NCBI GenBank assembly: GCA_963730605.1
Contig: CAVSSM010000001.1
Span: forward strand, 192,001 to 256,000
DNA: 64,000 bases
Direction of reading: 5' to 3'
Origin: an uncultured Chlamydiae bacterium
GTDB taxonomy: Bacteria; Chlamydiota; Chlamydiia; Chlamydiales; SM23-39
The notes under the pieces are model-generated. The model saw only the letters and a program-made list of their open reading frames with translations. It ran no database searches and was not told the DNA's origin. The translations under genes and the position numbers were made by a program. Positions 10,928 through 60,091 of this stretch are shown here, one piece after another (position 1 is the first letter of the stretch; every line of letters starts with the position of its first letter).

Positions 10928-11681
10928 CGTAGGCTAATTGTACACCAAGGGGAAGTTTCCGATTTACGCTCTCGTAGTCCACCTCATGGTTCATATGGGT
11001 GATCAGAGACCTCTTAGCTCCCGCCGCTTTAGAAAAAGCTGCCGCCTCGTCGAATGAAAACATCAGCTTGGAAACCCCGTCCCGAAGGGCGCTGACAACC
11101 AAGGTGCCAACGCCGGCAAGCGCTTCAAAAATCTCTTGAGGGTAATCCTTGATGTCCGAGACGTAGGCAAAATCGCCAATTCTGTATCCAGTGACTCTCA
11201 TCCTTCCTTGAAAATAGCTGAAATAGCGGATCTTTTCCCCTAAAAAGTCAACCTCTCCCCTCTCCCCTGCCAATCTATGCAGTTCAATCTGGGCAGTCAA
11301 TGACGCTTGAGGCTCCACCGGCTTGAAGAGGTAGTGATACCGAACAGCCAAGTCCTCGGAACTCTCTTTGGAGAGAAGGAAAGGCATAGCCTTATTTTGC
11401 GTCAAATAATAGGTCCTCAGTTCGTCGATGCCGGAAATATGGTCGTAATGAGTGTGCGTCAGCAATACGCCATCGAGACGGTCGATTTTATATTTTAGCG
11501 CTTGCTGGCGATAATCGGGGCCGACGTCGATGAGGAGCGACTTCTGCCCGATCTGGACAAGCCCTGCTGGACGGAGCCTCTTGTTGTAGATGGAAGTGGA
11601 GGAGCAAACGGCGCAGCTGCATCCGATGACGGGCACACCCGTCGAGGCCCCAGTCCCCAGAAACAAAAACTTCCCGTACAT
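10899..11681 (-). CDS. phnP: MBL-fold metallo-hydrolase (PhnP-like)
   Basis: LGTGASTGVPVIGCSCAVC and THTHYDHISGIDELR; adjacent to hflX as in Chlamydiae. Confidence 0.88.
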   Translation of the reverse strand: MYGKFLFLGTGASTGVPVIGCSCAVCSSTSIYNKRLRPAGLVQIGQKSLLIDVGPDYRQQALKYKIDRLDGVLLTHTHYDHISGIDELRTYYLTQNKAMPFLLSKESSEDLAVRYHYLFKPVEPQASLTAQIELHRLAGERGEVDFLGEKIRYFSYFQGRMRVTGYRIGDFAYVSDIKDYPQEIFEALAGVGTLVVSALRDGVSKLMFSFDEAAAFSKAAGAKRSLITHMNHEVDYESVNRKLPLGVQLAYDGLEIEFGI

Positions 11682-11740
11682 AGCAAGAGATCATACGGAA
11701 TTCCCCATATTCTCCGGTAGGACGATCGAAGCATAGTCCA

Positions 11741-15686: not shown

Positions 15687-16101
15687 CTACCTCAGGACAA
15701 ACTCGGGGTAATATTCGAAGTGAGGGGATGAGTTGGCGCTGCGGTAGAGGGGGTCAATGTCGATGAAACTCTCGTTGGAGAGAAGGAAAGGCATAGCCTT
15801 ATTTTGCGTCAAATAATAGGTCCTCAGCTCATCGATGCCGGAAATATGGTCGTAATGGGTGTGCGTCAACAATACGCCATCGAGACGGTTAATTTTATAT
15901 TTTAGCGCTTGCTGGCGATAATCGGGGCCGACGTCGATGAGGAGCGACTTCTGCCCGATATGGACAAGCCCTGCCGGGCGAAGCCTCTTGTTGTACGAAG
16001 AGGTGGAGGAGCAAACGGCGCAGCTGCATACGATAACGGGCACACCCGTCGAGGCCCCAGTTCCCAGAACTTTCCTTGCATAGGAGAATGTCATACGGAA
16101 T
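15687..16101 (-). pseudogene. Chimeric duplication junction: 5' part of phnP fused to the last 78 bp of the glycosyltransferase gene
   Basis: 15767-16101 matches about 11360-11701; 15687-15764 matches 20306-20383. Confidence 0.88.
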
Positions 16102-16328
16102 GACGCATTAAAATAGTAAAGATCAAAGACGGTCGGGCTGCTCTGGGGACTTTCCCCAAAACAAGACGTTTGGGGCCCCTTTCCCCGCCGCCCCTGTGCA
16201 GCTAGCCCCGTCTTTTTTGCACAGCTTCCGCACACGCTGATTTTCTGGATCGCGGCTTCTGAGAATTTCAAACCCAGGAAATCTCCAGATCTTTTATATC
16301 CATAAGATACTAATTACTAATTATATAC

Positions 16329-16394: not shown

Positions 16395-17645
16395 ATGGCA
16401 ACACGAGGCGAATTAAAAAAAGCTTTACAGGACTGGCAGCAGTGGCTGAACAAAAACAGTCATTTGATTATCCCCAGGAGCTCCCTTCTTAGCCAACAAA
16501 AGGATCTCTGCCTAGCGCTTACTGGGGTGAGGCGTTCCGGAAAATCCTCCATGACAGTCCAATTGGCGCTGGGGCGATTGGAGGAGACCTTCTTTTTTAA
16601 TTTTGAGGACCCGATTTTTTTCCCAGGGGCCAGCGTAGAAGTACTTGATCAACTTCTCTCACTCTATGAAGAAGAAACGGGGAAAAGCCCTAAGCTAGTA
16701 ATTTTGGATGAGATCCAAAATGTCCAAGGATGGGAGCGGTGGGTACGAAAAGCAATCGACTTAGGGCATTACCAAATCGTTGTAACCGGCTCTTCTTCTC
16801 ATTTATTGAGTTCCGAGATCGCGACAGCTATTTCCGGACGGGTTATCGAACAAACTATCTGGCCCCTTTCCTTTTCCGAATATTTAATATTTTTGGGTAA
16901 AACGCCATCTACAAAGGGAGCTTGGTTACGCGCATTAGAAAATTATCTCCGTTGGGGAGGCTTTCCAAAAGTCATCTTAACACCGGACGAGAATGATCGA
17001 ATCATTTTATTAAAACAGTACCTTAGTGACATTGTGCTACGAGACGTTGTTGCAAGACACTCCATTAAAAACCAACAAGCCTTGCATCAAATAGTTAGTT
17101 TCTATTTCACAGGTCTGAGTTGTTTACATTCCTATAATTCTCTGAGAAAAGCTTTTGAAATTTCGATTGAACTAGCCTCAACTTTGACAAATTATTTGAC
17201 ACAAGCTTTCCTTGTCTTTGAAATGAGCCGTTACCATCCCAATCTCAAAGTACAAGCCCGCGACTCTAAAAAAATTTACGTGATTGACACAGGCCTGCGT
17301 ACAGTATCCTTGCAATCCGATCGAGAGGACTGGGGCCGTTTGGCGGAAAATGCTGTATATTTAGAATTAAGGCGCAATAAAAAACAAGCATTCTATTATA
17401 AACAAGCGCAAGAAGTCGACTTTGTAATTACAGAATTTGGAAAACCTGTAGATGCAATACAAGTGTGCTACTCCGATCTTGAGAATCAAGAAACGCGCAA
17501 CCGCGAGATCAATGCTTTGCTAGAATGTTTGCAGGCCTTAGAACTTCCATCAGGAAAAATCTTAACACTGTCTTTGGAAGATGTGCTCTTAAAGGAGGAG
17601 AAAGAGATTCATCTCATCCCTCTCTATCAATGGCTATCTAAATGA
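16395..17645 (+). CDS. AAA_14-type ATPase with DUF4143-like C-terminus
   Basis: GVRRSGKS, LDEIQ, TGSSS, GGFP, KKIYVIDTG, ENAVYLEL, EVDFV. Confidence 0.88.
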   Translation: MATRGELKKALQDWQQWLNKNSHLIIPRSSLLSQQKDLCLALTGVRRSGKSSMTVQLALGRLEETFFFNFEDPIFFPGASVEVLDQLLSLYEEETGKSPKLVILDEIQNVQGWERWVRKAIDLGHYQIVVTGSSSHLLSSEIATAISGRVIEQTIWPLSFSEYLIFLGKTPSTKGAWLRALENYLRWGGFPKVILTPDENDRIILLKQYLSDIVLRDVVARHSIKNQQALHQIVSFYFTGLSCLHSYNSLRKAFEISIELASTLTNYLTQAFLVFEMSRYHPNLKVQARDSKKIYVIDTGLRTVSLQSDREDWGRLAENAVYLELRRNKKQAFYYKQAQEVDFVITEFGKPVDAIQVCYSDLENQETRNREINALLECLQALELPSGKILTLSLEDVLLKEEKEIHLIPLYQWLSK

Positions 17646-17683
17646 GAGAGCTTTCAGCCAGAATTATGATTACCTCGACTTTG

Positions 17684-18212
17684 GCGCGACTGGCAGGAAT
17701 ATGACACTCAGTCACAAACAGTGAGGAGGCAATAAAACCACCAAAGCTTACCTATGCGGATCCGAGTCCGTGTAGAACTCGATCTCAGAACCCTGCGGGG
17801 GGATGCAGCTAGCTATACTGGATAACCAGTATTGACGAAGGAGCCAGGGATCGAGACTCAGGGAGGTGCCACATTTCGGCCTACATGATGCGCCAGTCCC
17901 CCAAAGTGGATGAAGCGTTGAACGGAGCAATCCGTTTCCTCTGGAACGAAACGGTTATGTCCAGAGAGACATGAGGGTGACTGGTGACATCGCCTCGAGA
18001 AAATGGTGACATATTCTGACCCAGACAGAACCCACACTAACCTACACCAGTGGGAAGCATAGTCTATAAGGCCAGTCCGAAGGGGCTATGTATACAGTGG
18101 TGAGCGCGGAACGCTCCAGTTCTTGCTCATTAGGGTTAACGAGCATGTCCGGAGGAGGCGATCGCAAGGAAAGCCAAAAGGACACACTGACATTATGAAG
18201 AGAGCAAATCTA
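17684..18212 (+). ncRNA. Probable group II intron 5' remnant (about DI-DIII plus first codons of the ORF); no DV/DVI or RT
   Basis: Starts GCGCGAC (GUGCG-like); ACTGG can pair with CCAGT near 18047; GGATCCGAGTCC, GGTGAC loops, AACGGA-GCAA-TCCGTT, a TGTCC..GAAAGCC..GGACA stem, then ATG AAG AGA GCA AAT CTA. Confidence 0.6.
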
Positions 18213-18214
18213 TC

Positions 18215-18338
18215 CAATTGCAAAACTCTTCACCGCGCAAAACCGCTCGTCGCTGCTGTCAGAACGGCATGCCGGTTCTGACGAGAGGTCGCCAAAATCA
18301 TCGATTTTTCGCAGGTGTGGAGTTTTGCAACTGCCTCT
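18215..18338. mobile_element. Palindromic MITE (GAGGCAGTTGCAAAACTC-type end) truncating the intron remnant
   Basis: TTGCAAAACTC ... GAGTTTTGCAACTGCCTC; internal hairpin GTCAGAAC..GTTCTGAC. Confidence 0.65.
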
Positions 18339-18357
18339 ATCGTGTTGAATATTTTTG

Positions 18358-18699
18358 CTATGTTAAAAGAGGACGTGATTCCGGAGGTTCATTATAATTT
18401 CTGAAAATCGCATGTCTAGCAATGGCACATATCCCTGCTATCGAACATATTGCACTAAACACAGTTAGAGTTATTGATGCTGGAGATTCAATATCATTAT
18501 TATTGATTTTGACCTCGAAACCCCAGATAGCAAATCCCACACTGCCTACGAATGCTGATACCACCTGTATGGAGGTCATTGCAAGAGCACGGCACCTCCG
18601 TGCCTCATCTCCTTGCATTGTACCCCATGCAAATTTCAATGGACCAGTAGATGCATATTTTTCCGGAAAACAGAAAGCAGCCATAGCACTTGCAACCAT
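18358..18699 (-). CDS. Small two-hydrophobic-segment membrane protein, copy A
   Basis: 113 aa, GAGGGG SD; paralog of 19695..20066. Confidence 0.72.
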   Translation of the reverse strand: MVASAMAAFCFPEKYASTGPLKFAWGTMQGDEARRCRALAMTSIQVVSAFVGSVGFAIWGFEVKINNNDIESPASITLTVFSAICSIAGICAIARHAIFRNYNEPPESRPLLT

Positions 18700-18845
18700 A
18701 TTTTTAAACCCCTCTATATTTTTGGTTTATATTTCGTCCTGTTCTAGGAGAGGAGGATCTCCCTTTTTACCAAAGGCAAAACCTTACTCGACTATCATAT
18801 TTGTTGCCAACGCTTTTTTCTTCACTCACATAAGCCCCCACCTTC

Positions 18846-19137
18846 ATGGGTGTGCGTCAGCAATACGCCATCGAGACGGTCGATTTTATATTTTAGCGCT
18901 TGCTGGCGATAATCGGGGCCGACGTCGATGAGGAGCGACTTCTGCCCGATCTGGACAAGCCCTGCTGGACGGAGCCTCTTATTGTAGATGGAAGTGGAGG
19001 AGCAAACGGCGCAACTGCATCCGATGACGGGCACACCCGTCGAGGCCCCAGTTCCCAGAAATAAGAACTTCCCATTCATAGGAGAATATCATACGGCATT
19101 CCCCATATTCTCCAGTAGGACGATCGAAGCACAGTCA
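18846..19137 (-). pseudogene. Second 5' fragment of phnP with its upstream region
   Basis: Near-identical to about 11448-11738; breaks off at THTH. Confidence 0.88.
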
Positions 19138-19478: not shown

Positions 19479-19694
19479 AAAAACACCGACATGGCCTACC
19501 CTTCAGAAACCAATTCGGTAGGGCTGCAATCCAGAGCCTTGGCAAACAAAAAAATATTTTCTAAAAATAGATTCCTCTCGCCTCTTTCAACGCTGCCCAT
19601 GTAAGCACAGTAAAGGCCCGCTGCGAAAAGCAAGCTCTTCCTGAAAAATGCACCATGACTACAAAGCTGTGGACTATCGTGTTGAATATTTTTG

Positions 19695-20066
19695 CTATGT
19701 TAAAAGTGGACTTGATTCCGGAGGTTCGTTTACAACATAATTTCTGAAAATCGCATGTCTAAGCATGGCACCTATCCCTGCTATCGCACATATTGCACTA
19801 CACACACTTAGAGCTGTTGATGCTCGAGATTCATTATCATCAAAGATATGGATTTTGACCTGGGAAGACAAGCTAGCAAATGTTATAGTGCCTCCGAATG
19901 CTAATACACCATGTATGCAGGTCATTGCAAAAGCGCGAAACCTCCGTGCCTCACTCCCTTCCATTATTGACGGAGAACTACCCCTTATAGCAAAGTCTAC
20001 CATAATTTGACCAGTAGATGCATATTTTTCCGGAAAACAGAAAGCAGCCATAGCACTTGCAACCAT
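19695..20066 (-). CDS. Small two-hydrophobic-segment membrane protein, copy B
   Basis: 123 aa; first 19 aa identical to copy A. Confidence 0.72.
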   Translation of the reverse strand: MVASAMAAFCFPEKYASTGQIMVDFAIRGSSPSIMEGSEARRFRAFAMTCIHGVLAFGGTITFASLSSQVKIHIFDDNESRASTALSVCSAICAIAGIGAMLRHAIFRNYVVNEPPESSPLLT

Positions 20067-20305
20067 ATTTTTAAACCCCTCTATATTTTTGGTTTATATT
20101 TCGTCCTGTTCTAGGAGAGGAGGATCTCCCTTTTTACCAAAGGCAAAACCTTACTCGACTATTATATTTGTTGCCAATGCTTTTTTCTTCACTCACATAA
20201 GCCCCCACCTTCATGGCCAGAGCTAAACACAGCCTTACTTCCGAAGGCAGAAAGGAGCACGGGGGTTCCCCCGCGCACACGACCCTCCCGAAGCATAATG
20301 CAGTC

Positions 20306-59366: not shown

Positions 59367-59682
59367 AAATTAAATTGAAGAATCGGGCTGCGATGGCGCG
59401 TCCGCTCTGCTCACGTCGCACATCGCAGAACCAGGTAAAGTCTTATCAACTTATACTGTATGTTCGAACGAGTTTGAAATGGATGAAAGGGAGAGTAATA
59501 TAACATATATCGGGAATTCGAGGACTTCCATAGAGCAATCTTCGGGTTCCTGTGCACACTCTCAACTCTTGATCCGGGATCGTCCATAGGCAGAACATTT
59601 GCTTCCCGGATTAGAAACCATTTTCAGGCCGATCGGATCTCCTGTCTATCCATAGAAGCGTTTACTGCAAAAGAATCTAGTA

Positions 59683-60017
59683 ACCTGAGTTTTGGGTTCA
59701 TTTGTCTATCTCGACTTTGTACAATTTTGTGACGGCATCTCCGATAGAATCGCTGGCCCTTTTTTCCTTTTTTTGCTCATAAATAGTGCCTTCGGCTATG
59801 AATTTCGCAAAAAAAGAAAAAAATTGCAGAGCGCTTCCTCTGGATCTGCTCGCCAAAAATTGTACAAAGTCGAGTCTATGAGATTCAAGGATATTTCGAG
59901 CATATTTTTGCGCTTTGGAGCCGAGAGCAATATCGGGACGAGCATCTTGCCGAGGCGAAAAGTCAAAAAGATGCCGAAAGAAATTGAAGCTCAGGCAAAT
60001 GAACCCAAAACTCAGGT
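59683..60017. mobile_element. IS982-like MITE carrying a nested MITE-A
   Basis: ACCTGAGTTTTGGGTTCATTTG / CAAATGAACCCAAAACTCAGGT; 5-bp TSD TAGTA. Confidence 0.85.
59710..59874. mobile_element. MITE-A copy 3 (165 bp)
   Basis: Same TIRs; TSD TCTAT. Confidence 0.92.
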
Positions 60018-60091
60018 TAGTAGCACTGCGATGTGCGACGTGAGCGAAGCGAACACGCCATTGCAGCCCGATTCTTCATTGATTATCTGGA

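Follow-up and report, generated by a model that had tools for sequence, protein, structure and literature searches.

The Locus

The window, as we call the whole stretch of DNA analyzed here, comprises 64,000 nucleotides and corresponds to G000:C1:192001-256000, G000 being the genome under study and C1 and so on its contigs. A plus-strand host gene encoding an ATPase with AAA_14 and DUF4143 domains (16395-17645), which forms the context and lies outside the element, is followed on the same strand, after a gap of 38 nt behind its stop codon, by the start of an intron-like RNA. Within this gap, we found ATTAC (17669-17673, plus strand), fitting the profile N-T-W-A-N of the 5-bp target-site duplication of MITE-A, and, directly before the intron-like start, CTCGACTTTG (17674-17683, plus strand), the first 10 nt of the MITE-A terminal inverted repeat and the end of the 5' exon, whose last part (17678-17683) is IBS1. 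Re-reading of the window sequence revealed GCGCGAC from 17684, GAGGTG at 17863-17868, CAAAGT at 17902-17907 in the hairpin given for it before, and ATG at 18195 followed by codons for K-R-A-N-L.

Judged from its sequence and that of its relatives, the plus-strand stretch 17684-18212 represents the first quarter of a group II intron (about 530 nt out of about 2000, with the 5' end GCGCGA), comprising domains I-III and the start of domain IV. L128, the closest intact relative, is identical to the window fragment at 435 of 528 aligned positions; the similarity stops at about 18209, ahead of the start of the reverse transcriptase (RT). A preliminary description of this DNA had placed a group II intron here with its 5' boundary at 17684, and this is borne out by relatives that carry an RT/maturase, a domain V, and covarying exon-binding sites. 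Domain I spans 17690-18028, with outer limits drawn from fold and alignment. Domains II, III, and the first part of IV follow (18029-18212, limits approximate) and include the ATG (18195-18197). In domain I, a loop at 17762-17766 pairs with 17950-17954, as evidenced by the covarying pairs 17762:17954, 17763:17953, and 17766:17950, and may by analogy be named a long-range contact of the alpha-alpha' type. The 5' strand of the ID stem (17857-17871) has its partner at 17985-17999, EBS1 (CAAAGT) occupies the d3 loop at 17902-17907, and EBS3 (A) is found at 17980, all of them on the plus strand. A further long-range pair, 17694 with 17841, is kept in 55 of 55 relatives with 14 double changes and was matched to no nameable group II tertiary contact. 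The hairpin-rich character noted earlier was reflected in a fold of 17684-18212 that is better than 100 out of 100 shuffles (z -2.67). A scan for promoters and terminators upstream of the intron revealed nothing exceeding shuffles.

The fragment is single-copy in G000 according to a genome search, and the joint at 17683/17684 is no assembly seam, since it is bridged by contigs of the runs X1 and X2, which possibly derive from the genome's own sample. At the break stands a plus-strand copy of a second MITE family, MITE-B (18214-18337), which lacks about 3 nt at the left end and has an internal deletion; five further MITE-B copies exist in the genome. The 3' exon is invisible in the window, as the 3' three quarters of the intron and the remainder of this MITE-A copy are gone. 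The copy had been called dead and truncated by a MITE: the loss of its 3' three quarters supports the first part, and, with MITE-B at the break, the truncation would be due to a deletion. The ATG followed by K-R-A-N-L was rejected as the RT start, since in 10 of 10 relatives it is not in frame with the RT or meets a stop codon after 9-33 codons; the RT starts with GTG, 156-164 nt behind the ATG corresponding to 18195.

None of the Rfam group II models matched the fragment; in gathering and E-value modes, the window yielded a tRNA and one chance match only, leaving the fragment unscored by any family. Searches with blastn gave no match in plasmids and only 27-nt chance matches in phages; a single 25-nt chance match was detected in the 60 closest genomes, and two patterns run against viral contigs gave 0 matches each. 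In the neighborhood, three copies of a gene fragment with a metallo-beta-lactamase fold (window 11360-11708, 15767-16108, and 18758-19106) lie in a locally tandem-duplicated region, and a further local tandem duplication involves 18337-18849 and 19674-20216.

The Probable Landing Site in MITE-A

MITE-A has a length of 165 bp and is present in G000 in 20 complete copies with exact 10-mer ends, 15 of which show an identical 5-bp target-site duplication. Being short and multicopy, with terminal inverted repeats and a target-site duplication, it displays the characteristic features of a MITE; no transposase or autonomous partner with MITE-A ends was found. The 10-mer of 17674-17683 occurs 72 times in the genome, as compared with about four expected occurrences, and runs on as a MITE-A-type end in 63 of the 72, while seven other occurrences are non-MITE. 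The ATTAC in front of the window copy scores 4.4 on the profile of the target-site duplication (top 0.3% of random 5-mers), and the seven chance sites score between -3.6 and 2.1. The exact 10-mer, the fit of ATTAC, and a T predicted by EBS3 uphold the earlier reading of the 5' exon as a MITE-A end.

Matches to EBS1 plus EBS3 are found at 329 sites of the genome, 61 of them MITE-A ends; outside long ORFs, the numbers are 173 and 57, respectively. A 7-base guide, together with selection against gene hits, is enough to explain a single landing in MITE-A without any MITE-specific recognition, and exactly one copy of the lineage lies in MITE-A in this genome, among about 60 ends. Two observations are hints in favor of a real preference for MITE-A. 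In a 151-nt contig of a different study (X4 record 18; single record, depth 2), the intron start and the 15 bases ahead of it are those of the window copy, with one difference in 101, and the DNA farther out is another. L003, a relic of an unrelated group II intron (G000:C1:400634-401241, minus strand) with 67% similarity to the intact intron of the genome over 175 nt, begins directly behind base 11 of a MITE-A end (C1:401230); its EBS1 region is deleted, and it encloses a full MITE-A and terminates within the 3' portion of a variant of MITE-A.

Other arrangements of MITE-A were also seen. At C2:69113-69134 and C9:161428-161449, both MITE-A ends form perfect 22-bp palindromes, with the 5-bp duplication kept at C9, which are probably collapsed MITE-A copies that arose by deletion between internal 8-bp palindromes. 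At window 59677-60023, MITE-A is nested in a copy of the MITE family that hosts L128, and this recurs at C1:446775-448363 and C2:229517-229853.

Recognition of the Exons

Relatives were collected by a domain I pattern built on the first members, and the sample is therefore biased to that subgroup. Out of 102 5' ends, 85 reached a length of 330 nt or more and 77 of these were distinct; removal of three tandem and two short-exon cases left 72, represented by 55 sequences under 90% identity. The 5' end reads G(C/T)G(C/T)GA in 55 of 55 relatives, in agreement with the GUGYG start of group II introns, GCG being the commoner beginning (44 of 55).

In 53 of the 55 relatives, the hexamer aligned with EBS1 pairs with its own exon at five or six of six positions, and in the remaining two at four of six; 41 different hexamers are found among the 55 representatives. 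The mean number of Watson-Crick pairs between EBS1 and IBS1 is 5.13, versus 2.01 +/- 0.18 in shuffled combinations (5000 shuffles, best 2.69), and the six EBS1 positions are the top six among 5680 single-column tests, with z values of 7.3-10.0 that are overstated by the non-independence of kin, which leaves the number of different guide sequences unaffected. This pairing confirms the identification of CAAAGT in the d3 loop as EBS1 that had been proposed from the window alone. Just ahead of EBS1, the delta position (17901) holds C in 52 of 55 relatives. A single column, 17980, could be assigned to EBS3: in 30 of 34 relatives, its base can pair with the one that opens the 3' exon (fraction expected, 0.27), and four do not fit. 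As EBS3 is A in the window, the lost 3' exon would have begun with T, like the MITE-A terminus after base 10.

The GAGGTG suggested as EBS2 had to be given up. It showed no covariation with the exons (z -1.1 and -1.4 in the proposed register) and lies paired inside the internal ID helix, where 17862:17994, 17863:17993, and 17867:17989 are pairs involving this region. No 5-mer or single column anywhere covaries with exon positions -7 to -16 beyond a kinship background of about z 4, and no single pair of the EBS2a type rises above background. Exon position -7 is G in 37 of 55 relatives and may be a position read by the protein. As read from these covariation patterns, the lineage is shown to select its DNA targets by a 6-nt EBS1 and a 1-nt EBS3, without an EBS2.

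The Reverse Transcriptase and the Distribution of the Lineage

The RT/maturase of the lineage comprises 392 aa and has the domains RVT_1 and GIIM only, without an endonuclease; two relatives pass TIGR04416 at 392 and 410 bits (cut-off 300), and the best PDB matches are the class C structures 6ar1 and 7uim. A search for full copies of the intron had been proposed, and intact introns with an RT and domains V-VI were indeed uncovered in genomes of the phylum: relatives turned up by a DNA search in 6 of 400 other genomes, and three of these relatives are complete, with a matching 5' RNA, a gene for an RT, and a 3' end that is structured. Scanning GTDB with the protein revealed at least 13 loci at 44-73% identity, the next matches being at about 40% among the matches listed; these loci come from Chlamydiae, Planctomycetota, Nitrospinota, Gemmatimonadota, Lentisphaerota, and others, and those relatives that share the order of G000 are labelled Chlamydiae and Parachlamydiaceae. 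The domain I pattern retrieved at least 123 metagenome stretches, 79 loci of which were used, and the best 120 protein clusters show 76-100% identity to the lineage RT. Among 72,556 plasmids, the best match to the lineage RT reached merely 41%. Two false matches, G164 and L260, were excluded from the counts.

In RT trees of 84 and 38 rows, which are quick searches with SH-aLRT values and no bootstrap, the lineage forms a branch of its own (99 for a core of 32 rows, 93-95 including L028). Six class C rows, labelled by the CGC triad and Rfam scores, fall on a separate branch (99) with a different sister group (97-98). The lineage is also apart from the other Rfam-labelled groups, with ML, F/g2-g6, and U1-U3 standing unlabelled among the outgroups. 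It lies outside the clade of introns scoring on group-II-D1D4-2, which we equate with class D. The trees do not include L161 and L140, where another ORF had been picked, the short L233, and six loci without an intact RT; L229 is missing from the second tree as well.

Some members differ from the complete form. L016, L110, L171, and L148 are ORF-less or internally deleted (600-973 nt) with both ends intact and are possibly non-autonomous introns. Head-to-tail tandem copies were observed in L105, L108, L148, and L153.

G000 itself carries three nearly identical intact group II introns at unrelated sites (C1:286484-288419, C4:1-1936, and C8:29770-31707), with a 445-aa RT and matches to RF00029 and group-II-D1D4-6. 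They were considered as a parent of the window copy and rejected, as they belong to another lineage (36% RT identity) and none lies in MITE-A. No surviving RT of the window's lineage was found in G000; 3' relics of it are present at C9:25755-25978 (RT tail plus domains V-VI) and C7:99264-99199 (partial domains V-VI, cut by MITE-A), which means that the lineage visited the genome more than once. As far as can be told, these relics are not part of the window copy; in particular, the C9 relic was discarded as its missing 3' end, since the 3' exon there begins with A. A lone domain VI hairpin of the lineage is located at C1:722314-722350, with an inverted duplicate near 718740.

Domains V and VI

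Domain V is absent from the window copy; its triad and bulge were seen in the relatives. Among 37 distinct 3' ends, 36 have CGC as their triad, and the G of the triad is paired with C in all 37. Next to the triad come 4 bp, then a bulge of 2 nt, and finally an upper stem of about 5 bp. On the 3' strand, an insert of about 24 nt lies between the 4 bp and the partners of the triad in these 37 ends, consisting of a linker with an invariant AAAT and a 6-bp hairpin. In domains V-VI, 94.3% of the cells are paired and 130 double changes were counted versus 39 in shuffled alignments, while slid controls reached 46-51%, a comparison that favors the model, drawn as it was from the same sequences. The inserted helix is paired in 98.2% and covaries at five of six pairs, and folds of single sequences gave the same three-way junction in four of five cases. 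L028, the deepest-branching member, also has the insert. An additional insert of about 50 nt was noticed in the upper domain V of one member (L109:61-220). In 36 of 37 cases, domain VI has a bulged A at a distance of 7 nt from the intron terminus, and the intron ends with CT rather than AY, as fixed by the tandem copies.

According to this predicted structure, domain V of the lineage is broken just after the CGC triad, where the spliceosome also breaks (helix Ib / U6 ISL). We take the inserted hairpin to correspond to U2/U6 helix II, an analogy that makes no statement on descent.

None of 26 lineage loci (some partial; L014 and L019 are one intron) was matched by Rfam group II models, which matched 38 of 38 control introns. 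The interrupted helix of domain V keeps RF00029 from scoring, and it is the insert in domain V together with the divergent domain I that makes Rfam blind to the lineage. In the literature searched, mostly open-access main texts without their supplements, which may hold such introns, we encountered no group II domain V with an inserted hairpin and no description of retrohoming into REP sequences. An interrupted domain V is likewise absent from the accessible parts of PMC3552965, PMC4028801, PMC8919778, PMC7923331, PMC8632793, and PMC5709842. Domain V is described as the one part of group II introns that is highly conserved in the available text of PMC4028801, which also mentions unpublished introns of new classes whose boundaries are missed by profiles, and these could include the present lineage. 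The pipeline behind U1-U3 requires an Rfam domain V match, as stated in the accessible part of PMC8919778; domain-V-based pipelines of this kind would therefore miss the whole group.

Target Sites across the Lineage

The relatives are not inserted in MITE-A, and every one of them has its own EBS1. L128 is inserted at the terminus of a different MITE family, of which G000 contains 51 ends and the window a copy at 59677-60023. In genome G173, three intron variants have spread: one repeat, whose exon 12-mer is found in 236 copies, holds all eight 5' ends of a single variant as well as 13 of the 16 3' ends that were retrieved (21 3' matches in total), and at least 21 intron 3' ends are at different sites. 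The exon 12-mers of other relatives occur in 10, 3, 3, and 2 copies in their own genomes, so that, with 236 at the other end of the range, not every relative's exon is clearly multicopy. Many metagenome exons, as judged by eye, terminate in REP-like palindromes or short tandem repeats. The idea of repeats as a landing pad, which had been put forward for MITE-A, holds for the lineage as far as insertion sites can tell, with REP-like repeats and the end of another MITE serving as targets; MITE-A is a single case here, and with one copy in the genome its role as a multi-copy pad was not sustained.

Discussion

The window very probably holds the 5' part of a dead group II intron without an endonuclease, a member of a distinct lineage that was reverse-spliced into a MITE-A end and later lost its remainder by deletion. 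The intact element would have measured about 2.0 kb, with a ribozyme, a gene for an RT/maturase of roughly 390 aa in domain IV, and domains V-VI. Reverse splicing would have taken place between bases 10 and 11 of the repeat of what was presumably a MITE-A copy with T at position +1. A later deletion ending at MITE-B may have removed about 1.45 kb of intron, including the RT gene and domains V-VI, along with the rest of the MITE-A copy. In the lineage, EBS1 seems to have been repeatedly retuned to abundant harmless host repeats, namely REP-like palindromes, short tandem repeats, and MITE ends, and the missing endonuclease domain, as well as the examples of RmInt1 and RmInt2, suggests priming at replication forks.

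Other readings of the locus have to be weighed against this one. An RNA of another class, such as HEARO/omega RNA or the RNA of a DGR or retron, might resemble a group II 5' end, and the silence of all Rfam group II models on the fragment would agree with that; its relatives, however, have a group II RT/maturase, a triad domain V, a bulged A, and covarying exon-binding sites, they continue into an RT and not into IscB/HNH, and no further Rfam family matches the fragment, which reduces this possibility, considered in the preliminary description, to a negligible one. It is also improbable, if less extremely so, that the 10-mer is a chance extension of the IBS1 hexamer and no MITE end at all. The seven non-MITE occurrences and the lack of MITE-A sequence after the intron speak for such a coincidence; the 63 of 72 occurrences of MITE type, the superior score of ATTAC over the chance sites, and the T predicted by EBS3 speak against it.

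Two further alternatives concern the way in which the target was chosen, and both appear rather unlikely to us without being far-fetched. The intron could be a dedicated parasite of MITEs that recognizes the MITE-A repeat beyond EBS1 and EBS3, or its fold-back, and spread via both ends of many MITE-A copies. The position of the window copy in a MITE-A end and of L128 in another MITE end, the X4 contig with its different outer DNA, and the unrelated relic L003 behind a MITE-A end would fit this. Yet there is a single copy among about 60 ends, the X4 contig is a single record of depth 2, MITE-A ends account for one in five of the EBS1 plus EBS3 sites and for one in three outside ORFs, and neither an EBS2 nor a hairpin upstream of the window site (z 0.1) was found. 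Alternatively, a DNA hairpin may be needed at the target, as in IIC introns, and repeats would be used since they fold. The CGC triad, the CG bulge, and the missing EBS2 are common to IIC introns as presented in the accessible text of PMC1702495; 15 of 50 upstream 60-mers fold at z <= -2, and at 24 of 50 sites a hairpin includes IBS1 in its 3' arm. The latter number is in modest excess, however, over controls of shuffled upstream sequence (16 +/- 3 of 50, maximum 23 in 20 rounds), and 5 of 25 3' exons fold at z <= -2 as well; IBS1 lies inside the stem, whereas it lies behind it in IIC, and L011, L013, and L128, like the window site, have no upstream hairpin. The guide-directed insertion of an endonuclease-less intron into a MITE-A end remains our preferred reading.

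Among known introns, RmInt2 from Sinorhizobium meliloti GR4 (class D) inserts in both inverted repeats of ISRm17 (PMC4615759; PMC5894124, in their accessible parts), so that the two sites per transposon, one per inverted repeat, which had been highlighted for MITE-A, are already published in the available text of PMC4615759. As described in the same portions of PMC4615759 and PMC5894124, RmInt2 is similar to the lineage in having no endonuclease, in inserting in transposon inverted repeats, in its EBS3, and in its head-to-tail copies, and FRE652 is, like the window copy, a remnant with DI-DIII and part of DIV. In the same texts, RmInt2 possesses an EBS2, and its domain V is of the standard form; the lineage lacks the former, its domain V is interrupted, and the target here is a non-autonomous MITE. 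Class C (B.h.I1, GsI-IIC), going by the accessible text of PMC1702495, shares with the lineage the CGC triad, the missing EBS2, EBS3-IBS3, the lack of an endonuclease, a short RT, and intergenic sites near inverted repeats. In comparison, its EBS1-IBS1 pairing covers 3-4 bp in that text, instead of 6 bp with all six positions covarying, and its domain V is shortened and uninterrupted, instead of longer with an inserted hairpin. The triad G-C in 37 of 37, the CT end, an IBS1 often in a stem, and the separate RT branch set the lineage further apart from class C as portrayed there, and Rfam IIC-type models gave no match to the lineage. The stem-loop upstream of IBS1 in class C is missing at the window site and overlaps IBS1 in about half of the lineage. 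The IIB introns (classes B, D, E, F, and CL) share EBS3-IBS3 and a 6-bp EBS1 but have the EBS2 that the lineage lacks (PMC8643678, accessible part).

The available text of a review (PMC4424553) points to the break of the helix here as a feature that distinguishes the spliceosome from introns and has no explanation so far. The U2/U6 core of the spliceosome resembles the lineage in that its catalytic helix is broken at the same point (PMC4424553, same portion), whereas the lineage has one RNA acting in cis, is a bacterial retroelement, and shows no equivalent of helix Ia. The likeness is topological, and convergence is likely. An extra conserved structure near the 3' end is also known from the class B intron B.c.I4 (domain VII), where, according to the available text of PMC4424553 and PMC2691827, the insert follows domain VI and shifts the splice site, in contrast to the insert inside domain V found here.

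From its sequences, the lineage is apparently an undescribed intron family with a restructured catalytic domain. We find the arguments evenly balanced for the wider claim of an undescribed active class across several uncultured phyla, invisible to Rfam, with a domain V three-way junction split as in the spliceosome. If true, it would offer a natural, self-contained model for a domain V split between two RNAs, and opening the inserted hairpin would be a direct test of a bipartite, U2/U6-like core in a natural ribozyme. It would also represent a retroelement steered by seven base pairs that retunes to host repeats such as MITE ends; compact, with a variable guide of 6+1 nt and no EBS2, it might become a simple targeting tool once the remaining specificity is found. 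The window copy is a fossil, and as introns in both inverted repeats of a transposon are already known, the value lies in the lineage.

Group II introns survive by inserting into mobile elements, including transposases, phages, and other introns (PMC7306698, in its accessible part). Hiding in mobile DNA is a general strategy that the lineage shares, and MITE ends or REP-like repeats were not seen as targets in that text. At L161, the lineage member has another, different group II intron immediately upstream.
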